DNA of 64,000 nt from an uncultured Candidatus Binatia bacterium (GCA_965215605.1 OZ244070.1:256001-320000), one strand, 5' to 3'; counted from the stretch's first letter, positions 976-58,303 are shown. Program-made: numbers and translations. Notes: generated by a model not told the origin, from the sequence alone.

Positions 976-3291
976 ATGGACACCGCACACGCGAAACGCA
1001 TTCAAACGTCCCTCCACTGGGGCGCTTACCAAGTCGATGTCCAGGGTGGGCGCATCATCGCCGTGCATCCATTGGCCGGTGACCCGGACCCGTCGCCCAT
1101 CGGACAGTCGATCCCGGACGCCGTGCACCACCCCTGCCGGGTGGCCCGGCCCATGGTGCGGAAGGGTTGGCTGGAGCGGGGGCCCGAGCATCACGGAGGT
1201 GGCCGCGGGACGGAGCCGTTCGTCCCGGTGAGCTGGGACGAGGCCCTGGACCTGGTGTCTGGAGAGCTGCGGCGCGTGCGGGAATCCTGCGGCAACTCGG
1301 GAATATTCGGCGGCTCCTACGGCTGGGCCTCCGCGGGCCGCTTCCACCACGCCCAAAGTCAGCTTCACCGCTTCCTGAACCAGTCGGGCGGCTATGTCCG
1401 GTCCGTCAACACCTACAGCTTTGCGGCGGCGGAAGTCATCGTCCCCCATGTCTTTGGCTATGACTGGGGCGCCGTCCGCGGCAGATCCACTTCGTGGCCG
1501 GTGATCGCCAGGCATGCGGAGCTTGTGGTCAGCTTCGGGGGCATCCCGCTCAAGAATACCCAGGTCAGCGCCGGCGGCTTGAGCAGACATGCCATACGGG
1601 GCTGGCTCGAGGGCTGCAGGGAGAACGGGGTCGAGTTCGTGAACATCAGTCCGCTACGGGACGATGCCGCGGACTTCCTCGAGGCGGAATGGCTGGCGCC
1701 GCGCCCCAACACCGACACCGCGCTGATGCTGGGCCTGGCCCACGCGCTGGTTCACGAGGGGCTCCACGACCGGACGTTCCTGGACAAGTACTGTACCGGG
1801 TTCGAGTCCTTTCGGACCTACCTCATGGGTGAGCAGGACGGTCAACCCAAGGACCCTGAGTGGGCGGCGGCCCTGTGCGGCATCCCGGCCGACACCATCC
1901 GGAGCCTAGCCCGGCGCATGGCGGCGGCGCGGACTTTCATTACCGTGAGCTGGTCGCTGCAGCGCGCCGACCACGGCGAACAGCCCTATTGGATGGCGGC
2001 GGTCCTGGCGGCGATGCTGGGCCAGATCGGGCTTCCCGGAGGCGGCATCGGCTACGGCTACGGCGCCACCGGCTCCATGGGCAATCCCGTGAAGTCCGTC
2101 GGCGGGATGGCGCTGCCGCAGGGCGTGAACCCGGTGAGCTCCTTTATTCCGGTGGCGCGCATCGCGGACATGCTTCTCCATCCCGGCGAACCGTTCGACT
2201 ACAACGGACAGCGGTTGCGGTATCCCGACATCCGTCTCGTCTACTGGTGCGGCGGCAACCCCTTTCATCACCACCAGGACCTCAACCGGCTGGTGGAAGC
2301 ATGGCAGCGTCCCGAAACCATCATCGTCCACGAACCCTGGTGGAACCCTCAGGCGCGGCACGCGGACATCGTGCTGCCGGCCACCACCCCCCTGGAACGC
2401 AACGACATCGGCTGGCAGGCCGCCGACCCCGAGGTACTGGCCATGGCACAGGCCATCCCTCCGGTGGGCGAGGCGCGGAACGACTACGACATCTTCTCGG
2501 GCCTCGCCGATCGACTGGAGTTCAAGGACGGCTTCACCGAGGGCCGGCAGGAGAAGGACTGGCTGCAGCACCTCTACGACACGTTCCGCGGGCAGTTCAT
2601 CCGCGAAGGGATAGAGTTGCCGCCGTTCGATGAGTTCTGGCGCGCCGGTCATGTCACCTTGCCGACAGCGGGCGACGAGAAGGTGCTGCTTGCCCAATTC
2701 CGGGAAGATCCGGTCGCGCACCCGTTGCCGACGCCGTCCGGGCGTATCGAGATCTTCTCCGAAACCATCGCCGGCTTCGGCTACGACGACTGCCCCGGAC
2801 ATCCGGCCTGGATCGAGCCGGAGGAGTGGCTGGGCGGAGAGAAGGCCAGCCGTTTCCCGCTCCACCTCATCTCCCATCAGCCAACCACGAGACTTCACAG
2901 TCAGCACGACCCGGGAGCGGTCAGCGTCGCCAACAAGGTGCAGGGCCGCGAGCCGTTGCTGATACACCCCGCCGCCGCGGCCGCCAGGGGGATAGCGGAC
3001 GGCACCGTGATACGCGTGTACAATGATCGCGGAGCCTGTCTCGCCGGCGCCCGCGTCACCCAGAACGTCTCGCCGGACACCGTCGTGCTGGCCACCGGAG
3101 CCTGGTTCGACCCCGCCGCGCCGGGCGGTCTGGAACGGCACGGCAATCCCAACGTCCTGACCCTGGACAAGGGCACCTCGAGGCTCGCTCAGGGCCCCGT
3201 CTCCCAGACGGCGCTTGTGGAGGTCGAGGCGTTCGAGGAGGAGTTGCCGGAGGTGCAGGCTTTCACCGCGCCCGGTGCCGCGGGGACCTGA
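976..3291 (+). CDS. Mo-bisPGD oxidoreductase, biotin/methionine sulfoxide reductase (BisC/TorA/DMSO reductase family), no Tat signal
   Basis: 771 aa; SLHWG start, GGSYGWASAGRFHHAQSQ, NTYS (Mo-ligating Ser), GGNPFHHHQD, C-terminal RLHSQ molybdopterin dinucleotide-binding domain. Confidence 0.9.
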   Translation: MDTAHAKRIQTSLHWGAYQVDVQGGRIIAVHPLAGDPDPSPIGQSIPDAVHHPCRVARPMVRKGWLERGPEHHGGGRGTEPFVPVSWDEALDLVSGELRRVRESCGNSGIFGGSYGWASAGRFHHAQSQLHRFLNQSGGYVRSVNTYSFAAAEVIVPHVFGYDWGAVRGRSTSWPVIARHAELVVSFGGIPLKNTQVSAGGLSRHAIRGWLEGCRENGVEFVNISPLRDDAADFLEAEWLAPRPNTDTALMLGLAHALVHEGLHDRTFLDKYCTGFESFRTYLMGEQDGQPKDPEWAAALCGIPADTIRSLARRMAAARTFITVSWSLQRADHGEQPYWMAAVLAAMLGQIGLPGGGIGYGYGATGSMGNPVKSVGGMALPQGVNPVSSFIPVARIADMLLHPGEPFDYNGQRLRYPDIRLVYWCGGNPFHHHQDLNRLVEAWQRPETIIVHEPWWNPQARHADIVLPATTPLERNDIGWQAADPEVLAMAQAIPPVGEARNDYDIFSGLADRLEFKDGFTEGRQEKDWLQHLYDTFRGQFIREGIELPPFDEFWRAGHVTLPTAGDEKVLLAQFREDPVAHPLPTPSGRIEIFSETIAGFGYDDCPGHPAWIEPEEWLGGEKASRFPLHLISHQPTTRLHSQHDPGAVSVANKVQGREPLLIHPAAAAARGIADGTVIRVYNDRGACLAGARVTQNVSPDTVVLATGAWFDPAAPGGLERHGNPNVLTLDKGTSRLAQGPVSQTALVEVEAFEEELPEVQAFTAPGAAGT

Positions 3292-3404: not shown

Positions 3405-3499
3405 GGAGAAGGAAGGTGCCCGGTGGTGCCGCTGGTCTTCAAAACCAGTCTGAGGGCCGTAAGGTTCTCGGAGGGTTCGACTCCCTCCCTTCTCCGCCA
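3405..3499 (+). tRNA. selC: tRNA-Sec (anticodon UCA)
   Basis: 8-bp acceptor GGAGAAGG/CCTTCTCC plus GCCA, 6-bp D stem with 4-nt loop, anticodon arm CTGGT-CTTCAAA-ACCAG, long variable arm, 5-bp T stem GAGGG-TTCGACT-CCCTC; the bacterial 8/5 Sec fold. Confidence 0.96.
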
Positions 3500-4943: not shown

Positions 4944-6035
4944 ATGACGGCGGTAAGAATCGGGGTCATCGGAGGCGGCTTCGGCACCCAACACCTGCAA
5001 GGCTACCGCGCCACCGACAACGCGGAGGTGGTGGCGTTCTGCCAACGGACGCCGGAAAGAGCGGAGGCGACCGCCAAGGCATTTGGCGTGCCCCACGTGT
5101 ACACCGACTACCGCCAGCTCCTGGACCACCCCGGCCTCGACGCCGTCAGCATCGTGGCGCCGCCGCATCTCCACGCGGAGATGGTCGCGGCGGCCGTCGA
5201 CCACGGACTGCACCTGCTGTGCGAGAAGCCCCTGGCCATGAACTCCGCCCAGGCCGAGACCATGCTTTCGCAGGCAGAAGCCGCCGGGCGCGTGCACATG
5301 ACCGCCTTCAACCACCGCCACATCCCGGCGCTGGCCTACATGAAGGAACTGCTGGACGGCGGCTACGTGGGCGCGCGCGTGTACCAAGTGGAGGCCCGCT
5401 GGTTCAGCGAGAACCGCGCCACGCCCGGCCTGACCCACTACTGGCGCCACCAGCGGGAGCTGGCCGGCTTCGGCGTGATGGGGGACATCGGCGTACACAT
5501 GGTGGACCGGCTCCGCTGGCTAATCGGCGAGTTCGAGAGCGTCTGGGGCCACGCCGACACCTTCATCCCGGAGTTGCCGGATGGGAGCGGCACACCGCGG
5601 CCGGTGACCGTGGAGGACAGCTTCACGCTGCTCGGGCGTCTGTCGGGCGGCGCCACAGCGTGCATCCGCCTGAGCGCGGTGGCGCGCAAGAGCAATTACC
5701 AGAACCTGGAGATCTACGGCGACGCCGGGATGCTGCGCTTCGTCTTCGACCGCAACGTCCGGGGCTGGGTGCGCGGCCACCTCTGGGGCGCCCGGGGCGA
5801 CGCGCGCTCCCCCGAACCGTTGGACATTCCCGAACGCTACACCCGCGGACTCGACGACTCCGACCCCCAGCGCGCCCAGGGCGAGTTCATCTTCGCCAAG
5901 CTCACCCGCGACTTCGTCGACGCCGTCCGCAACGGCACACCCGCCGCACCCACCTTCGCCGACGGACTCGCCGCCCAACGCGTGCTCGACGCCGCCCTGC
6001 GCGCCGCGGAGCAGGAACGGTGGGTATTCGTATGA
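4944..6035 (+). CDS. Gfo/Idh/MocA family oxidoreductase
   Basis: RBS AAGGAGG; RIGVIGGGFG, LCEKPLA, GVMGDIGVH. Confidence 0.92.
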   Translation: MTAVRIGVIGGGFGTQHLQGYRATDNAEVVAFCQRTPERAEATAKAFGVPHVYTDYRQLLDHPGLDAVSIVAPPHLHAEMVAAAVDHGLHLLCEKPLAMNSAQAETMLSQAEAAGRVHMTAFNHRHIPALAYMKELLDGGYVGARVYQVEARWFSENRATPGLTHYWRHQRELAGFGVMGDIGVHMVDRLRWLIGEFESVWGHADTFIPELPDGSGTPRPVTVEDSFTLLGRLSGGATACIRLSAVARKSNYQNLEIYGDAGMLRFVFDRNVRGWVRGHLWGARGDARSPEPLDIPERYTRGLDDSDPQRAQGEFIFAKLTRDFVDAVRNGTPAAPTFADGLAAQRVLDAALRAAEQERWVFV

Positions 6036-6103
6036 CCACAAGGCGACCTATCCAGGAAGCCGCATCAACCGTCCAGACAGAATTCACGAAGCACCCCGTG
6101 CAA

Positions 6104-6141
6104 CCGTTTGTCCTGAGCGTAGCGAAGCGGAGTCGAAGGGC
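6104..6141. repeat. REP-like extragenic element at left edge of the atypical block
   Basis: CCGTTTGTCCTGAGCGTAGCGAAGCGGAGTCGAAGGGC resembles the common ...CCTGAGC...GTCGAAGG REP-type element (recognised by eye). Confidence 0.5.
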
Positions 6142-6240
6142 GCCATTCTCAGTCTCAGGCATCCGGCGCCGAAGCCGCCTCGGCCAAAAGCCACGAACAC
6201 GCGGAGAGCCGATCCGTCCGAACATCAAGGGAGAAGCCGT

Positions 6241-7824
6241 ATGTTGACACTCAAGATGTCCAAGCCCCACTGCAAGACAGAGCAAAGTCATTTCAGGCCT
6301 CACTCCATCATCCTCGCTCTCATCCTCCTGGCGGGTTTGGTGGGTTGCGACCAGCGCGAAGAGCAGCAGAACGAATCAAAACTCGCAAATCCGCGGCAAC
6401 CGGGAACCCAGTCCGCTCAATTGGATGCGCTGAAGGACCAGATACAACAACTGCAAAGCGCCTTTGGCGCGCAGTCCGACATTCTGCAACAGATACGGGA
6501 CAACACCATGCCTCCTGAGTGGGAAAGCCGCCTCGCGGAACTTGAAGAGCAGGTGAGCGACGTCAGCCGATGGCCGAAGAACCCCGGCGAGGCCGAGAGT
6601 TTCCTTGAAGGGGTATCCGCACTGGTCACTGGCCTCCCATTATGGGCCGAACCGCAGTACCTTCCGCGGCTCTCGCGGATCCGTTGGGCAGCGATGGTAT
6701 TCACGACGTTGAATGACGCGCCGGATGCAGATTCGCCGCTCGCCACGAGTACAACCCCAACGACATGCAGGTACGGCTGGAAGCATCTGAATGCGCCGCC
6801 CGATGAGGACCTGTCGCCTGACCAACTGGACCAACGGGTCGACCAACTGCGCGCCTTGGCGACAGCCACACCGGAAGGCACCGCTGAGGAGTTGGTTTCA
6901 CTGATACAGGAGTGCGCCAACGCACTCTCTGGCGAGGCTGTTCGGCGGCGCGTCTCCGAGGCCGTACAGGAGGCGGAACAACTCCTGGAGGGACCTCAGG
7001 ACGCCACCGCCAACATGGCAGAGGTTGTCGCGCTCGAACTCGATGCAGTAGAGCAGGAGGCCGTTGACCCCGACGTCGATATCCCGGCCCTGCGACAGAA
7101 GCTATACAAAGAGGTCCTGCGACGCCAAGCCGTTGAGCAGGTCGACGGTTTGCGAAGCGATTGGCAGACCGTACGGCAATTCAAGCCCGATCTACCCTCC
7201 ATCTATGAAGCTCATCAGCCTCAATGGCGTCAGTACTTGCTTCGGAGAGCGGAGCGCGCTCAACAGGCAGTCCGCGTGACCGCTCTCAGGACACTACTGC
7301 AGCAGGTGGCATCGTCCCGTATGGCACTGGTTCTGGACGGCGTCCACGCGCCGGCCCACGAACGGCTGGAAAGAGAGTTGCGTCATGCCGTAGCCATTCA
7401 CGAAACCGAAGCGACTCGCCAGGCTGAAGAGCGCCACGCTCGCGCGGTGCGGTCGTATCAGCGTTGGGCGCTTGCCGAAATCAGGAAGTTCAATGATCAG
7501 TTTCAAGAGATATCCGAAAAGGCTGTTCAAGCTAGTTCGTGGTTGGACACAGCAAGGGTGATCGTCAGGCGTAGCCCCGAGGCCCGTGGGCGTATGGCGT
7601 ATAAGGACATCGTACAGTATCGAGAGGTCCGACAAGCCATGATCGACCACCTCCTGCCCATCAACCGCGCTTTGCTGGACCTGCCCGTTCACAAACTCTA
7701 CGAACAGGCGTTTGAGAAAGGTTGGACGAAGTTGGCCGGACGCCGCGAGCAGACGGAGGTGGCGGAGGCCACAGCGTCGGCCAAGAAAGAACCGCTACGA
7801 GCATTTCTGGAGGACGGCTCGTGA
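6241..7824 (+). CDS. Hypothetical coiled-coil lipoprotein
   Basis: 527 aa; hydrophobic IILALILLAG then lipobox LVGC with Asp at +2; long Q/E/L/A-rich helical stretches; start may be 6256. Confidence 0.75.
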   Translation: MLTLKMSKPHCKTEQSHFRPHSIILALILLAGLVGCDQREEQQNESKLANPRQPGTQSAQLDALKDQIQQLQSAFGAQSDILQQIRDNTMPPEWESRLAELEEQVSDVSRWPKNPGEAESFLEGVSALVTGLPLWAEPQYLPRLSRIRWAAMVFTTLNDAPDADSPLATSTTPTTCRYGWKHLNAPPDEDLSPDQLDQRVDQLRALATATPEGTAEELVSLIQECANALSGEAVRRRVSEAVQEAEQLLEGPQDATANMAEVVALELDAVEQEAVDPDVDIPALRQKLYKEVLRRQAVEQVDGLRSDWQTVRQFKPDLPSIYEAHQPQWRQYLLRRAERAQQAVRVTALRTLLQQVASSRMALVLDGVHAPAHERLERELRHAVAIHETEATRQAEERHARAVRSYQRWALAEIRKFNDQFQEISEKAVQASSWLDTARVIVRRSPEARGRMAYKDIVQYREVRQAMIDHLLPINRALLDLPVHKLYEQAFEKGWTKLAGRREQTEVAEATASAKKEPLRAFLEDGS

Positions 7825-7825
7825 G
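7803..7825 (+). repeat. 23-bp direct repeat, copy 1 (RBS plus GTGA stop/start overlap)
   Basis: ATTTCTGGAGGACGGCTCGTGAG; 22/23 identical to 10973-10995. Confidence 0.85.
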
Positions 7826-8039
7826 CCACCGTCCAGTGGAGCAGCTTGACACTACCACTCCGGCCTTCAACGTGTTGCCGGCTTGTGCTTTGCCTTGGGT
7901 TCTGACCAAATGGGCTGTCGATGCTGGTGAAAAGGACTCCACCCGAACCGACCGCCGGGCGGGATCGACACGACCCAACCGCGACGACGCGTCGATCCCA
8001 AGAGATGCCGGCCGCACTCAAAGGACTCATACGACATGA
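7821..8039 (+). CDS. Small hypothetical protein (72 aa), translationally coupled at both ends
   Basis: GTG overlaps the lipoprotein stop (GTGA) after GGAGG; its TGA overlaps the ycjX ATG (ATGA, 8036-8039). Confidence 0.4.
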   Translation: MSHRPVEQLDTTTPAFNVLPACALPWVLTKWAVDAGEKDSTRTDRRAGSTRPNRDDASIPRDAGRTQRTHTT

Positions 8040-9406
8040 TATTCGACTTGACGACGAAGAAAAGAAAGATTGCCATCACCGGCCTGTCCGGAAGCGGCAA
8101 GACGGCCTTCCTGACCTCTCTGTTATGGCACCTGCACGAATTCGACAACATGAACTTTGAACTCGACAACAAGGCGAAGATTACTCAATTTCGCGAAGTT
8201 CCGGGCCCACTGGCTTTTCCGTTCGAGCAGTTTCGGAGTCTCATGGCCGCGGAAGAGAGTCGTTGGCCCATGAAGACGACACACGACCATCGTTACGTAT
8301 GCACCTTCACCCGCTCTGACCAACGATGGAAACAACAGCTGGAATTCTTCGATTTCCCCGGCGAGCGTATCGCGGACGTGGGGATTGCGCTGCATGACGA
8401 TTTCGCCCTTTGGTCCCGCTACATGCTTGCACAATTGGCCAGCGACTCCTCTCGCTGGGACGCGGTCCAGGCATTCGAGCAGGATCTGGAGGCCATCCTG
8501 GCTGCATCCGCCAAACCGTCACAGAACGACACTGGGACGTCTTTCGACCGGTTGCAACAGGTCGTCGGCAGCTATTGGAGGCTCCTGGCGCGATTCGCAT
8601 TGAATTGCCGGCTCCTGGTATCGCCGTCAGAGTTCATGTTGAGTCGTCACGGCGATGTGGCCAGACGCGATCAACCGGATAAATTGGCCGAGGACCGGCT
8701 TCATCGTTCGGATCTGTCGAGTCGGTTCGCCCCGCTGCCGGCACACCTGTTGGACAAGGATCCCAGTTTGTCACATGCGATGCACGCGCGCTACAAACAC
8801 TACCGCAAGGATGTGGTCATGCCAGTATTCGAGAAAATGACCAGCGTTCACAGCCTGATCGTACTGGTGGATATCCGATCACTACTTCTCGGCGGCGTTG
8901 ATCGTTACAACGACAATCGCCAGGTCCTGCAGGCCTTGTTCGAAAACATGCAGGATCATTCCTCCATCCGCCGCCTGTTCAGGAAATTGAAATTTTGGTC
9001 ACCCGCGGTGCAACGGGTGGCCTTTGTCGCCACAAAAGCCGACCTCGTCAGGAAGGACGACCTGGACAAGGGTCGCATGAAGTCCTTGTTGCACAGCATG
9101 ACTCGGCGCGTAAAGGAACTGTGTCCCAAAGCAGACGTAAGATGGTTTGATTGCAGCTCCTGCGTCTCCACCTTTCGGACGGACAAGATGGACGATGACA
9201 AGCTGGGCGGTGTCCCGGTCCACGACAACAATCCAAACCGTTCAGACATGGAGTTTTTCGTGTCCTCGTTGCCAGAGGATTGGCCGGACGACTGGGATCC
9301 GGATTGTTACCAGTTCCCCGATGTGGCCCCTCGTTTGCCGCGCAATCGCCAGAGGCCTCCTCGGCATCGAAATCTGGACGCCGTATTCGACTTTGTCGCC
9401 AAGTAG
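8036..9406 (+). CDS. ycjX: YcjX-family P-loop NTPase (DUF463)
   Basis: IAITGLSGSGKTAFLTSL (Walker A), DFPGE, IVLVD, FVATKAD, HRNLDAVFDFV; all parallel YcjX motifs. Confidence 0.88.
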   Translation: MIFDLTTKKRKIAITGLSGSGKTAFLTSLLWHLHEFDNMNFELDNKAKITQFREVPGPLAFPFEQFRSLMAAEESRWPMKTTHDHRYVCTFTRSDQRWKQQLEFFDFPGERIADVGIALHDDFALWSRYMLAQLASDSSRWDAVQAFEQDLEAILAASAKPSQNDTGTSFDRLQQVVGSYWRLLARFALNCRLLVSPSEFMLSRHGDVARRDQPDKLAEDRLHRSDLSSRFAPLPAHLLDKDPSLSHAMHARYKHYRKDVVMPVFEKMTSVHSLIVLVDIRSLLLGGVDRYNDNRQVLQALFENMQDHSSIRRLFRKLKFWSPAVQRVAFVATKADLVRKDDLDKGRMKSLLHSMTRRVKELCPKADVRWFDCSSCVSTFRTDKMDDDKLGGVPVHDNNPNRSDMEFFVSSLPEDWPDDWDPDCYQFPDVAPRLPRNRQRPPRHRNLDAVFDFVAK

Positions 9407-9417
9407 GGAGGGCTGCC

Positions 9418-10890
9418 ATGGATACCAAAACAACGGACAAGGATACACCGGGATCACGGCAGGGCGACCACGGGTTGGGAACACCCCGATCCCGGATGGA
9501 CGGCGCCCGAGTGCTGAGCGATCAGGAGATCGAGGAAACGCAGCGCCTGGAACAGGAGGAGTCGCGGCAGCAGTCCGACACGGAACCGCAACAATTCGCA
9601 ACCGTGAAACCCAACACCACGACTACAGAGCCCCCGGAACCGGCGACAGGCGACCACCGGTCGGAAACACATCCATCTCCGCGGGACGCCGCCGCCGTGC
9701 TGAGTGTTCAGGAGATCGAAAGGACGCCTCGCCTGGTCGACGAGGAGTCACGGCAGAGTTCCGACACGGAACCGCGGCAGCTCGCAAAAGTGGATGCCGA
9801 GACCACGACCACAGACTCTCCCGAACTGAGGCAGGGTGACCACGGGTTGGGAACACCCCGATCCCGGATGGACGGCGCCCGAGTCTTGAGCGAACAGGAG
9901 ATCGAAGAGGCCAGGCGCGTGGAGGACGAAGCGTTGCGGCGACAGTTCGAGAAGGAGCTGCAACAGCCCGCGGCCTTCGCGTTGCCCTCCGGCATCCGTC
10001 GCGCCCTGACTTGGAGCGGGCTTGCCTTGGCGGCCGTGCTCGGACTCTTCGTCGTGTCTCAGTTTACGGCGGCCGTTACCAGCATCGCGACCCTCCCGGT
10101 ACCGTTCGACTGGATCGTGGGCCTTTTGGCCGTTCTCTTTGCCGGGATTCTGAGTTGGATGATATTACGACTCGCCGTCGCGCTGTTCCGTTTGCAGCGC
10201 AGCCCATCCGTCAACCTCCGCGCGATCCAGGCCCTTCAAGAGCGCCGGCACATGCAGGCTCTGGTCGCGGAACATGCAGAACAGGCCATTCACGAATTGC
10301 GGAATTACCTTGAAAACTACCAACTCAACGACGAGGCTCGCAGGCGTTTGAAGGGCCTCGGCTTGACCGACGGCGAGTGGGACGACCTTGTATTCGCGCG
10401 GCGGTCGCTCTTGGCGAACGACGAATCCATGCCGGCGGACGCGTGGCTCTCGGCGTTCCGCAGCCAGTTCCAGTCGGTCCTGGATGGCGCGGCGGAACGT
10501 CGTGTCAGACATTACGCCAAGCATGTGGGGCTTGGTACGGCCCTTGCTCCGTTAGCCGTGCTCGACAACGCAGTCGTGCTGTACGCATGCGTAGCTTTGA
10601 TCAAGGATCTCACGTTCCTCTACGGACTGCGCCCGGCACTCGGGCAGACAGCGACGATTCTGGCACGTTCGATAATACAAACTTACCTTGGCGGGCTGTC
10701 CCAGCAAGGCGCTGCCGCGGTCTCCGACAACTTACAGAGCACCTTGCAGAGCGAAATGAGCGGATTTCTGGCATCAACACTATCCGTTGTGGCCACCAAG
10801 GTTACGGAAGGAGCCGTGAATGGTGTTCTCCTGTGGCGGCTGGGGAGACGGGCGATTACTTTCCTTCAACCCGTACAGCCCGCCGACTGA
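9418..10890 (+). CDS. ycjF: YcjF-family (DUF697) membrane protein with N-terminal tandem repeats
   Basis: Two TM helices, TALAPLAVLD...LYG, C-terminal EGAVNGVLLWRLGRRAITFLQP; directly follows ycjX with RBS GGAGG. Confidence 0.85.
   Translation: MDTKTTDKDTPGSRQGDHGLGTPRSRMDGARVLSDQEIEETQRLEQEESRQQSDTEPQQFATVKPNTTTTEPPEPATGDHRSETHPSPRDAAAVLSVQEIERTPRLVDEESRQSSDTEPRQLAKVDAETTTTDSPELRQGDHGLGTPRSRMDGARVLSEQEIEEARRVEDEALRRQFEKELQQPAAFALPSGIRRALTWSGLALAAVLGLFVVSQFTAAVTSIATLPVPFDWIVGLLAVLFAGILSWMILRLAVALFRLQRSPSVNLRAIQALQERRHMQALVAEHAEQAIHELRNYLENYQLNDEARRRLKGLGLTDGEWDDLVFARRSLLANDESMPADAWLSAFRSQFQSVLDGAAERRVRHYAKHVGLGTALAPLAVLDNAVVLYACVALIKDLTFLYGLRPALGQTATILARSIIQTYLGGLSQQGAAAVSDNLQSTLQSEMSGFLASTLSVVATKVTEGAVNGVLLWRLGRRAITFLQPVQPAD
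9458..9910 (+). repeat. Intragenic 186-bp (62-aa) tandem repeat, about 2.4 copies
   Basis: GACCAC anchors at 9466, 9652 and 9838 (period 186); GDHGLGTPRSRMDGARVLS.QEIEE in copies 1 and 3. Confidence 0.9.
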
Positions 10891-10972
10891 ATGTCGCGGC
10901 CGAGCCTATCGTTGACGGAGTTGCGAACGCCGTTGGCGGTGATTCGGAGGCCGAAATGAACCCATCGCAGGA

Positions 10973-10995
10973 ATTTCTGGAGGACGGGTCGTGAG
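10973..10995 (+). repeat. 23-bp direct repeat, copy 2 (RBS plus GTG start of the nuclease-like gene)
   Basis: ATTTCTGGAGGACGGGTCGTGAG. Confidence 0.85.
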
Positions 10996-12385
10996 AATCC
11001 ATCAGTTAATCGCTGTAACCGTGTTCGTATTGGCCACGACGGTTTTCAACGCAGTACCAGCCGTCTCGAACGCCTCAACCCTGAGCCTGCCCCTGACACC
11101 ACGGGAACAGGCGGCCCGGCTTTGGTTCGTGGCCACACCGGAGACGGCACAAAAGCTCTTTCCGTCTGCGGAAGCCAAGCCCAAATACTATTTTCAGCGC
11201 GACTATCGACGCGAGTATGGTGGCGCGCTGTTGTATGATCGAGCCCGTCTGGCGGAAAGAATAGGGGAGCAGGGGCGCGCCAGATTCGCTGCGGAGCGCG
11301 GTTGGAGCCAGTTGCTCGGCTCCAGGAACCGCGGCATGCGCCAAGGACCGGACTCCGTGCATTGGGACCGCCGGACGGGTTTCGTCCGTGTGATCGAAGC
11401 GAAAGGAGGCAACTCCAGGCCCACTATCTCCTACGGTTCTTCACAGGGCACGAACCCAAATACGATCTGGTCTGCTCGAAGGGTCCTCATGTCGCCAAAC
11501 GCAACCAGACAAGCCCGGGTCGCGTCGGCCCGCGTAATCGTGGCCGCGCAGAAGAATCGCCTTGTCACGGGTGTCGTAAGGACCCCTCACACGATGGGCC
11601 GGCCCGGTGAGCCCCAGCTCGAGGGTCGGTGGAATCGCGCCAACGTGAGGGGGGAGGCGCGCGTGATCGAACGAGCGGTGACCCGGGAGAGTTCCGATGC
11701 TCGACAAATCTTCCGGGAAGCGCGGAGGGGCCAGTCCGCCGCAATGCTGAAATACCGAGCCGGACAGGGCGTGGCAATCCTCGGCCTTGCAGGGGCGGCC
11801 GGACTGGCGTGGGATGCGTACCAGCAGGCCGGGGTCGCATGGGAAATGTTCAACGATCCTACCCTGCAAGGGAGTCTCCTGCCCCACATGCAGACAAGCG
11901 TCGCCATCGGCAGGATCGGCCAAGCAACAGCCCTGGGCGTGAGTTCCGCCGCTCGATTGACGACTTTCAATCTGGCCGCAAGCAGGGTACTGGTCCCGGC
12001 CGCCAACGCCGCGTTGCTGCCTGTCACGTTCGCGGCAGAGGGACTTCGGCTGGTTACGGCGTATCACGAGTACAACCTGGGCCGCATCAGTCGGCGTGAT
12101 CTATACCGTCGCGCCACTCCGACGGCGGTCTACGCCGGGGCTACAACCGTTGGCGCCATCGTTGGCGCCATCGCTGCTTTTCCGGCCGGCGGCGTGACTG
12201 CGGGAGCGGGAGCTTGGACCGGCGCCACGATCGGCGGCATCATAGCGATACCGTTCCAGTTTGGCGCTGATTATCTCTGGGGATGGTACTACCAGGGCTT
12301 CGACGCCAGTCAGCGCCGCCACGTGGATGAGGCCGTCTATAGGCACTATGGCCTTGAAGCCGCCAACGGAGCGGGTCCGCACTGA
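10991..12385 (+). CDS. Signal-peptide protein with PD-(D/E)XK nuclease-like domain and hydrophobic Gly/Ala-rich C-terminus
   Basis: N-terminal MRIHQLIAVTVFVLATTVFNAVPA; ERIGEQG...QGPDSVHWD...VIEAKGG...QGT; C-terminal GAIVGAIAAFPAGGVTAGAGAWTGATIGGII. Confidence 0.7.
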   Translation: MRIHQLIAVTVFVLATTVFNAVPAVSNASTLSLPLTPREQAARLWFVATPETAQKLFPSAEAKPKYYFQRDYRREYGGALLYDRARLAERIGEQGRARFAAERGWSQLLGSRNRGMRQGPDSVHWDRRTGFVRVIEAKGGNSRPTISYGSSQGTNPNTIWSARRVLMSPNATRQARVASARVIVAAQKNRLVTGVVRTPHTMGRPGEPQLEGRWNRANVRGEARVIERAVTRESSDARQIFREARRGQSAAMLKYRAGQGVAILGLAGAAGLAWDAYQQAGVAWEMFNDPTLQGSLLPHMQTSVAIGRIGQATALGVSSAARLTTFNLAASRVLVPAANAALLPVTFAAEGLRLVTAYHEYNLGRISRRDLYRRATPTAVYAGATTVGAIVGAIAAFPAGGVTAGAGAWTGATIGGIIAIPFQFGADYLWGWYYQGFDASQRRHVDEAVYRHYGLEAANGAGPH

Positions 12386-12444
12386 CGGCTGAGGTGGGAG
12401 GACTCTATTGCGGATGTGCGGTCACGTTAGCGTCCAGGACGGGA

Positions 12445-12653
12445 TCATGCCGGCTCGTCGTGCTGCGCCGCCGCTGCGAGGCGCTCCTTGAGAGCGCGGA
12501 ACCGTGGCTCGTCGATCCCCGTCGCCGACGTGATCACATCCCAGCTCACGCCGATTCTCAGAAAGCCTTGACGGCCTCTACCTTGCCGCGCTGCAAGCCT
12601 TCTTCCTTGCCCTCCGCCCGGCCTTCCTCCAGAAGTTCTTGAGCGTATGACAT
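12445..12653 (-). pseudogene. Orphan C-terminal fragment of an Rpn/YhgA-like (PD-(D/E)XK transposase-like) gene, frameshifted
   Basis: RBS AAGGAGGAGG then MSYAQELLEEGRAEGKEEGLQRGKVEAV; after one missing base at 12569/12570 it continues GFLRIGVSWDVITSATGIDEPRFRALKERLAAAAQHDEPA*. Confidence 0.7.
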
Positions 12654-12703
12654 GATTCCTCCTCCTTGGCCGTCAAGAGGCGGCGGCATGGCCGCCCAAG
12701 CCC

Positions 12704-57634: not shown

Positions 57635-58303
57635 ATGGGGATCTTTACACGCCTGAGCGACATCGTCAGCTCGAACATCAGCTCCATGCTGGACAAGGCC
57701 GAGGATCCGGAAAAGCTCATCCGGTTGATGATCCAGGAGATGGAGGACACGCTGGTGGAGATCAAGGTCGCCTGCGCCCAGGCGATGGCGGCGCGCAAGA
57801 AGGTCGAGCGCGAACTGGATGAGGCGCGGCGGCGCGGCGACCAGTGGGAAGAGAAGGCGAAGCTCGCCGTCGCCAAGGGACGGGAGGACTTGGCGCGGGA
57901 GGCGCTGGTGGAGAAGCGGCGTTACCGTGAGCGAGCCGAGGTCCTGGAGGACGAGGCCGTCCAGTGCGCCGGCATCATCGAGCAGTACCAGTCGGACATG
58001 GTCCAATTGGAGGACAAGCTGGCGAAAGCGCGCGAGAACCAACGGATTCTGGTACAACGCCACATCCAGGCGCACAAGCGCAAGCGGGCGCAAACCGGGA
58101 TCCGGAAGATGACCAGCGCCGACACCATGCTGCGGTTCGAGCAGTTCGAGAACCGCATCGAGCGCATGGAAGCGGAGGCCGACCTAGTGAATTTCGCGCA
58201 CAAGCCGGACCTCGATGACGTGTTCGCCCGCCTGGAGCAGGACGAGGAGATCGAAGCCGAACTGCGCAGGCTCAAGGACGGCGCCGGGCGGTCCGAGACC
58301 TGA
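57635..58303 (+). CDS. pspA: Phage shock protein A
   Basis: MGIFTRLSDIVSSNI, AEDPEKLIRLMIQEMEDTLVE, coiled coil. Confidence 0.96.
   Translation: MGIFTRLSDIVSSNISSMLDKAEDPEKLIRLMIQEMEDTLVEIKVACAQAMAARKKVERELDEARRRGDQWEEKAKLAVAKGREDLAREALVEKRRYRERAEVLEDEAVQCAGIIEQYQSDMVQLEDKLAKARENQRILVQRHIQAHKRKRAQTGIRKMTSADTMLRFEQFENRIERMEAEADLVNFAHKPDLDDVFARLEQDEEIEAELRRLKDGAGRSET

Follow-up and report, generated by a model that had tools for sequence, protein, structure and literature searches.

YcjX and YcjF are conserved, stress-induced proteins and the structure of YcjX has been solved, yet to our knowledge their function is unexplained, and what the two proteins regulate is the question raised by a block of genes in an uncultured Candidatus Binatia bacterium. 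The block occupies positions 6241-12385 of the window, by which is meant the whole stretch of 64,000 nucleotides (nt) that was analysed (GCA_965215605.1, OZ244070.1:256001-320000). In it, ycjX and ycjF stand between the gene for a predicted lipoprotein and the gene for an exported protein of 464 residues, here called p464. The lipoprotein and p464 genes form a mobile pair that has captured YcjXF in one genus, which is a new genetic context for YcjXF. The gene module is real and undescribed; its function is put forward below as a hypothesis. The block reads as follows.

6241-7824, + strand: lipoprotein gene, 527 amino acids (aa)
7821-8039, + strand: open reading frame (ORF) of 72 codons, probably a junction fossil and not a gene
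8036-9406, + strand: ycjX, encoding a YcjX-like GTPase, 456 aa
9418-10890, + strand: ycjF, encoding a YcjF-like membrane protein with DUF697 as its C-terminal part, 490 aa
10991-12385, + strand: p464 gene, 464 aa, with a signal peptide, an enzyme-like head and a glycine-zipper helical tail

The overlaps and gaps that an earlier reading made from the sequence alone (the sequence-only reading) had claimed between these frames are all in the sequence, namely GTGA at 7821-7824, ATGA at 8036-8039, 11 nt between ycjX and ycjF, and 100 nt between ycjF and p464.

Conservation and gene order

The lipoprotein gene lies directly 5' of the p464 gene in 24 of 24 loci examined, which comprise the present locus, eight loci in seven genomes of the same genus, six new loci from a scan of genome contigs (11 loci, five of them already counted) and nine metagenome loci (L093-L101, the close relatives among 25). 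YcjXF stands beside the pair in eight of these loci, namely the present one, G022, G021 (twice, one copy degraded), G019, G024, G015 and L093. The predicted association of ycjXF with the two partner genes was thus found in other genomes as well, in three gene orders (lipoprotein-ycjX-ycjF-p464, ycjX-ycjF-lipoprotein-p464 and lipoprotein-p464-ycjX-ycjF) and at two chromosomal sites in total, the second being that of the four-gene set in G024. YcjX occurs in five of 24 same-genus relatives and in the present genome, each time within ~3 kb of the pair. Across the phylum, DUF463, the YcjX family, scores above the cut-off in 4 of 401 genomes, the present one included, and is thus rare; neither partner gene lies near the three other YcjXF copies (L060-L062). 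YcjXF is an add-on to the lipoprotein/p464 core, seen in one genus only. No paper was found that links YcjXF to such a pair of a lipoprotein and an enzyme-like protein, and gene-context tables of papers on psp and on DO-GTPases may hold such rows.

The pair itself varies among its carriers. G012 and G020 (L038, L039) have two tandem lipoprotein/p464 pairs without YcjXF, in which the first p464 copy (407-410 aa) has no head and has an internal duplication of a WDAYQQ...MF.DP motif, and the second lipoprotein copy has no signal peptide. G021 has two copies of the whole arrangement (L041 on C1, and L042 on C4, a contig of 37 kb); frameshifts disrupt both ycjX and ycjF in the C4 copy, and the genome is listed with 9% contamination, so that strains may be mixed. 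Near the pair in other taxa are ORFs that resemble, by eye, capsid/phage, transposase/insertion sequence (IS) and Uma2 genes. In L049, a locus from a Candidatus Entotheonella metagenome-assembled genome, an ORF 5' of the pair (5144-7360) encodes a membrane protein of 738 aa that matches no Pfam family and has a tail rich in Gly/Ala, and two short ORFs next to it (7532-8157) resemble, by eye, a split Uma2-type endonuclease. In L053 (8632-11232 and 11426-14794), both genes of the pair are broken and lie beside two identical 509-aa ORFs that look transposase-like by eye.

Insertion junction and the 72-codon ORF

The segment that holds the 72-codon ORF, ycjX and ycjF sits inserted exactly at an older lipoprotein/p464 junction, because it is flanked by 23-nt repeats and by a fossil of the lipoprotein 3' end.

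7803-7825, + strand: direct repeat copy 1, at the lipoprotein 3' end and the GTGA stop/start junction
10945-10995, + strand: lipoprotein-gene 3'-end fossil directly 5' of p464, including direct repeat copy 2 (10973-10995)

The two repeats are identical at 22 of 23 nt, and copy 1 spans the real lipoprotein stop. The last 46 nt 5' of the p464 start align with the lipoprotein/p464 junctions of G012, G020, G019 and G024, and the fossil upstream of p464 encodes ...FLEDGS followed by a stop that overlaps a GTG, like the lipoprotein C-terminus, with a score reached by 3 of 500 shuffles. The insertion between the repeats keeps the coupled start sites.

The 72-codon ORF has a GC content of 0.611 at all three codon positions, i.e., no codon-position signal. 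It is found only in genomes with the same gene order, is frameshifted in G021 C1, and has a ratio of nonsynonymous to synonymous substitution rates (dN/dS) of 0.70 that comes from very few changes. Both of its ends have counterparts elsewhere, as the first ~58 nt can be aligned to the 5' end of the G012 gene for a p464 variant and the last ~50 nt to the leader of ycjX in G024; at the protein level the match to the p464 variant is not significant, as 33-57 of 500 shuffles reach it. For these reasons it is probably a fossil of the junction and is not counted. The five co-directional ORFs of the sequence-only reading are therefore all in place, and only four of them are taken as genes.

Sequence variation and mobility of the locus

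The genome has 4.06 Mb and ~67% GC. GC content at third codon positions (GC3) is 0.67-0.72 in the genes of the block vs 0.87 as the median of the genome, taken over 2932 heuristic ORFs no shorter than 150 aa; this places the block at about the 7th-13th percentile, and the flanking genes have GC3 values of 0.85-0.92, in agreement with the codon usage unlike that of the flanks that had been noted by eye. The block had also been described as bounded by an element like a repetitive extragenic palindrome (REP) and by an Rpn remnant, and both were recovered.

6104-6146, no strand assigned: REP-like short dispersed repeat in the spacer 5' of the lipoprotein gene, with a core of ~35 nt
12445-12672, - strand: frameshifted remnant of a gene of the Rpn/YhgA family, coding for the last 85 residues only

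A blastn search of the whole genome with 6036-6240 found eight further copies of the REP-like core (24-37 nt, 91-97% identity). The Rpn remnant corresponds to the last 85 of ~334 residues, with 76-86% identity in two frames (tblastn with the 333-aa neighbour in L047 as query), and the full-length neighbour in L047 matches PF04754 (E = 3.6e-39). Further Rpn/YhgA-like copies were found by tblastn elsewhere in the genome (G000:C1:1269445-1274266, several within 5 kb, and 387036-387842).

The module lies between a gene for a GFO/IDH/MocA oxidoreductase and tctB, and this site is found in several states in the genus, being empty in seven genomes, with the Rpn gene alone in two and with the module in five of those located. 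The genomes named for each state are as follows.

Empty site (gap of 0.5-1.1 kb): G003, G004, G006, G013, G014 and G016
Rpn gene alone: G017 (full length) and G007 (C-terminal half)
Rpn gene with a p464 remnant: G024
Module present: G000 (the present genome), G022, G019, G020 and G012

In G024, the Rpn gene at the hot spot (L121, G024:C1:866900-869200) is complete, the p464 remnant there is short and interrupted by stop codons, and the intact four-gene set of this genome lies ~1.2 Mb away. In run X5, a contig of depth 61 joins position 6010 to position 12406 with 324 other letters between them and without the module, and the contigs that hold the module have a depth of ~3; in run X7, one contig of 16.8 kb holds the whole arrangement of the window. 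When compared with genomes of a different gene order, the module has a nucleotide identity of 68-77% and most flank segments have 82-87%, the exception being the gene for a major facilitator superfamily protein (67-76%). With G022 as the reference, the genes for the lipoprotein, YcjX, YcjF and p464 have dN/dS values of 0.66, 0.45, 0.38 and 0.47 vs 0.05-0.21 for eight flanking genes. The module is a mobile, fast-evolving accessory island at a presence/absence hot spot that it has in common with an Rpn gene. Next to the module stands a full-length Rpn/YhgA gene in G022, G019, G020 and L047 and, here, what is left of one; nevertheless, the Rpn gene is a neighbour and not a component, since G017 and G007 have it at the site but lack the module, and G012 has the module but lacks the Rpn gene.

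A hot spot of this kind might collect unrelated cassettes next to the Rpn gene, in which case YcjXF would be a mere neighbour with no function in common with the lipoprotein/p464 pair. Such an accidental association is compatible with a site that varies among empty, Rpn-only and module-bearing states, with the occurrence of the pair without YcjXF at most loci and in all five whole genomes checked, and with the YcjXF pairs of L060-L062, which have neither partner nearby. It is less easily reconciled with the retention of YcjX within ~3 kb of the pair in all six YcjX-bearing genomes of the genus despite three gene orders, with the presence of the four genes together at the second G024 site and on the metagenome contig L093, with an insertion between 23-nt repeats that preserves coupled starts, and with the low GC3 and raised dN/dS that YcjXF has in the same way as the pair. 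On this balance, chance neighbourhood is considered rather unlikely.

The lipoprotein

The lipoprotein had been claimed to carry a Cys-Asp lipoprotein signal, and this is what was found: its single hydrophobic segment ends at a lipobox LVGC (in the context LAGLVGC) that is followed by Asp, and both residues (Cys36, Asp37) have a conservation of 90% or more across 28 relatives. As judged by the lipobox and the conserved Cys, the protein is a predicted bacterial lipoprotein. In enterobacteria, Asp at this second position is a signal for retention in the inner membrane; this rule and the linkage of YcjXF with psp are only analogies here because the genome is one of Candidatus Binatia. The family comprises 36 proteins, every one of which is unnamed or hypothetical, and no family in Pfam, NCBIfam, PADLOC or PHROGs was found for the lipoprotein, the 72-codon ORF or the p464 head. 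The C-terminal ~180 aa are conserved, and the N-terminal two-thirds are variable with insertions and deletions. An AlphaFold2 (AF2) model is all-helical and confident only over residues ~371-520, where the blocks of the predicted local distance difference test (pLDDT) reach 80-98. Fold searches with this model against solved structures and more widely returned generic helical bundles only (Z up to 10, within noise for helical models), and an Atlas search with the C-terminal part gave no usable match.

p464 and its enzyme-like head

The p464 family comprises 61 proteins, and the typical signal peptide of p464 is kept across the whole family, including distant members. The protein consists of a head (residues ~62-232) and a tail (residues ~235-453), and residues 30-255 are basic (42 K/R vs 19 D/E). 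In the head, E136, K138, G119 and Q152 are conserved in 100%, D121 in 98%, H200 in 95% and E89 in 93% of 123 representatives that are at most 50% identical to one another, and P120, G139-G140 and G203 are also within the set conserved at 93-100% (E89, G119-P120-D121, E136-A-K138-G-G, Q152, H200, G203), the order of motifs being E..GPD..EAKGG..Q..H. The head has a conserved, catalytic-looking set of E, PD and ExK like that of PD-(D/E)xK enzymes. In addition, the AF2 model of p464 (pLDDT 74.3) gives the head as a helix, three strands, two helices and two strands, followed by long helices, and this order fits a PD-(D/E)xK core. Like PD-(D/E)xK nucleases (e.g., Mrr_cat, PF04471), the model has the E in its first helix and PD and ExK on consecutive strands; unlike them, the head matches no nuclease significantly, follows a signal peptide and would be tethered by a membrane tail. 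The description of p464 as nuclease-like in the sequence-only reading thus keeps the conserved motif and the fit of predicted secondary structure in its favour, and finds no significant nuclease match behind it. No Pfam nuclease family was found for the head among 35 or 70 members, and three fold searches with the whole p464 model gave generic helical bundles only (Z up to 10, helical noise) in lists that were filled by the tail and thus concern the tail. An Atlas match at a score of 0.91 is to a cluster of restriction endonucleases (Mrr_cat) and is taken as a lead only.

With a profile of the head, 292 clusters (50% identity, E up to 0.001) were found in several phyla, and the 150 listed of these 292 matches are all proteins of 140-555 aa with the head near the N-terminus. 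The tail has long helices with Ala/Gly-rich hydrophobic segments and gives sub-threshold matches to DUF6861 and to glycine zippers. The present p464 stays under the cut-off of 28 bits for PF21724 (DUF6861) with a score of 18.1; of 35 relatives, 33 match this model at E up to 10 (best 1.1e-7), and precomputed annotation lists the family for several of them. The profile of the p464 family matches the pore-forming domains of colicins B, A and S4 in the PDB at E values of 0.027, 0.069 and 0.17, which are not significant and come from glycine-rich sequence. The Pfam colicin model is absent among the matches of 35 p464 members at E up to 10, and no colicin chain is among the fold matches listed. A relationship of the tail to DUF697 was also considered and dropped because hhalign against the YcjF and YcjX alignments gave a probability of 0.6% or less. 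In a predicted complex of lipoprotein residues 37-527 with p464 residues 30-464, the median score was 0.27 vs a mark of 0.32.

As far as the source describes them, DUF6861 toxins likewise join a glycine-zipper helical membrane region to an enzyme-like domain (bioRxiv 10.1101/2022.08.23.504947); they differ from p464 in that the membrane region is N-terminal as described there and C-terminal in p464, which also stays below the family cut-off and has a head that matches none of the toxin families listed. The lipoprotein and p464 could accordingly be a bacteriocin-like toxin and its immunity lipoprotein, with p464 exported by the Sec route, its tail inserting into a target membrane and its head cutting nucleic acid, while the lipoprotein would shield the periplasm of the producer and YcjXF would buffer self-inflicted membrane stress. 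The signal peptide, basic head and glycine-zipper tail would all suit such a protein, as would the weak matches to colicin B, A and S4 domains (E 0.027-0.17), the tandem lipoprotein/p464 pairs of G012 and G020, the elevated dN/dS and the reported fusion of DUF6861-type glycine-zipper domains to toxin domains (in the portion of bioRxiv 10.1101/2022.08.23.504947 that deals with them). A toxin of this kind is nonetheless improbable. The colicin matches are non-significant and have no counterpart in the Pfam model search given above, and the pair comes with neither a release gene nor a means of crossing the outer membrane. Unlike polymorphic toxin/immunity pairs, p464 has a conserved head that is always N-terminal among the 150 listed of 292 matches and never forms the variable tip of a long polymorphic toxin. 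Moreover, 16 distant members of the p464 family stand alone, with no relative of the lipoprotein family by hidden Markov model and no conserved upstream lipoprotein gene or other neighbour, and a strongly self-toxic protein is therefore disfavoured.

YcjX and YcjF

The identities proposed for YcjX and YcjF were substantiated by profile matches. YcjX scores 143.9 bits against PF04317 (DUF463; cut-off 25) over profile positions 2-438 of 443, is encoded by the sole DUF463 gene of the genome and matches the solved YcjX chains 6nz5/6nz4 (E = 2e-11). Its translation contains GLSGSGKT, DFPGE and TKAD, which we take to be the GTPase motifs G1, G3 and G4, and G1 and G4 align with 6nz5. YcjF scores 62.6 bits against PF05128 (DUF697; cut-off 27.7) and 72.2 bits against TIGR01620, below the cut-off of 160. 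The gene for this DUF697 partner follows ycjX after a gap of 11 nt, an arrangement that agrees with the YcjX family. Hydrophobic segments of YcjF at 202-220, 232-250 and 377-395 form a predicted transmembrane hairpin and a third segment, and its charged N-terminal extension is a tandem repeat.

9458-9906, + strand: 186-nt tandem repeat inside ycjF, 2.4 copies

The copies agree at 72% of positions (Tandem Repeats Finder), and tblastn matches of the extension in relatives are offset by repeat units. The repeat copy number seems to differ among relatives, as the G021 alignment is ~50 residues longer (L041, L042).

The arrangement resembles the YcjX-YcjF of gammaproteobacteria (6nz4/6nz5/6nz6) in having a P-loop GTPase with G1, G3 and G4 followed by a DUF697 membrane protein. 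It differs from it in four respects: YcjX scores 144 bits to PF04317, where a canonical YcjX of this phylum reaches 384 bits; YcjF has the extension made of the 186-nt repeat, which may set it apart, and is below the TIGR01620 cut-off; the genes are not beside psp; and they lie inside a low-GC3 accessory module. The linkage with psp is absent here, as the sole PspA/IM30 match of the genome (144 bits) is found at 57638-58279 (+ strand), ~45 kb from ycjXF. Elsewhere, passages of PMC8125068 report ycjX and ycjF as induced together with psp genes in phiX174 infection, YcjXF is tied to the heat-shock and psp responses of gammaproteobacteria (passages of PMC3041696 and PMC9239133), and a passage of PMC11237479 places YcjX in the DO-GTPase family and names membrane stress as its predicted field of action.

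Such reports raise the alternative that the module serves envelope maintenance or stress tolerance and takes no part in conflict, in which case the lipoprotein and p464 would process a periplasmic or membrane substrate and YcjXF would be the usual stress pair. The documented heat-shock and psp responses (as given in PMC3041696 and PMC9239133) are in line with this, and so are the breadth of the head family, whose 292 clusters at 50% identity are mostly single-gene, and the sequence-predicted association of all four products with the membrane or periplasm. A maintenance role would, however, have to accommodate presence/absence polymorphism in one genus and in one metagenome, a low GC3, dN/dS values 3-6 times those of the flanks and, elsewhere, a pair that adjoins phage-, IS- and Uma2-like ORFs (by eye), and we regard it as doubtful. 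Low GC3, raised dN/dS and presence/absence polymorphism fit accessory conflict genes better than housekeeping genes.

Proposed role of the module

The reading preferred here, which is held tentatively and falls somewhat short of an even chance, is that of a cell-autonomous envelope conflict module. A cell-autonomous role is preferred over a secreted toxin because of the predicted membrane tethering, the partnerless distant members, the site in common with Rpn and the response of ycjXF to phage; the Rpn family is reported as an anti-phage toxin-antitoxin family in the portion of bioRxiv 10.1101/2023.05.02.539157 that treats it. Gene linkage, export signals, conserved residues, mobility, fast evolution and a facultative link to YcjXF that has been kept repeatedly are observed; every activity and every protein contact in the scheme that follows, including nuclease activity and a role in defence or as a toxin, is something that we infer. 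The core is the lipoprotein gene translationally coupled to p464, and both products carry export signals. The lipoprotein would probably be tethered at the outer face of the inner membrane, where it may guard or sense, and p464 would be the effector, located in the membrane or inserting into it through its glycine-zipper tail, with a PD-(D/E)xK-like head that may cut nucleic acid in the periplasm, perturb the membrane, or both. YcjX, as a cytoplasmic GTPase, and YcjF, as its membrane partner, were recruited in one genus of Binatia, here at the lipoprotein/p464 junction, and may act on the cytoplasmic side as a GTP-dependent switch or as a buffer of membrane damage. The target might be, e.g., phage or other invading DNA at the envelope.

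In its strongest form, in which YcjXF is a GTP-driven switch that controls a membrane-tethered, periplasm-facing, nuclease-like effector with a lipoprotein guard, and the whole a new type of envelope immunity, the proposal is given only a small chance. DO-GTPase systems, in which variable effectors are coupled to a GTPase, offer a comparison (Kaur et al., 2020, PMC7159879, in the passages that describe them). The present module is like those conflict systems, as described there, in its GTPase, its membrane components, its variable effector-like partner, its fast evolution and its patchy distribution. It is unlike them in that YcjX scores 25.1 bits against PF19993 (DO-GTPase2), below the cut-off of 27 (precomputed annotation lists PF19993 for its cluster), that no second GTPase is paired with it, and that the effector would be exported and not cytoplasmic. 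No GAP1-like protein was recognised among the neighbours, which have no further Pfam match, and the coverage of GAP1 by Pfam is uncertain.

Several results weigh against the preferred reading of a conflict module that includes YcjXF. All YcjXF-linked loci belong to one Candidatus Binatia genus, so that independent linkage events are few and related. YcjXF is missing from 16 of the 24 pair loci, seven of which are contigs of less than 6 kb that are unable to exclude it, and five whole genomes with the pair (G012, G020, G041-G043) hold no DUF463 anywhere (5/5); YcjXF is therefore dispensable for the lipoprotein/p464 pair, and the one fixed five-gene operon of the sequence-only reading gives way to a conserved core of two genes. 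For the p464 head, there is no significant match to any known nuclease family or structure. Profile searches of the PDB returned nothing for it (0 matches at E up to 10 with the profile of the first alignment), and hhalign against an Mrr_cat alignment (29 loci) gave probabilities of 0.2% (35 sequences) and 1% (123 sequences), although at this probability of 1% or less it places the D and xAK motifs of the head in register with Mrr. A periplasm-facing nuclease head would also have no obvious resident substrate. With regard to defence, PADLOC-DB 2.0 gave only P-loop-level matches to YcjX (E = 0.0016 or weaker) and no match to the other four ORFs, which agrees with the earlier claim that the block is no named defence system; PHROGs gave no match for the block; and the defence-island argument has a single neighbour family, Rpn, to build on.

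Neighbouring features

Towards the 5' end of the window, a tRNA-Sec gene with anticodon TCA lies at 3405-3499 (+ strand; Rfam, 73.1 bits), just 3' of a molybdopterin oxidoreductase gene at 976-3291.

Implications

The locus documents a small recombination hot spot with an Rpn gene, the states of which can be traced between strains. The p464 head may represent a new enzyme family of the periplasm or membrane, and the families of the head and of the lipoprotein are undescribed. The linkage of YcjXF, in three arrangements, to an exported enzyme-like protein and a lipoprotein leads to a testable hypothesis on what YcjXF regulates. If this hypothesis is true, the lipoprotein and p464 would be the first concrete set of partners for YcjXF, and canonical YcjXF may likewise couple membrane damage to an effector.

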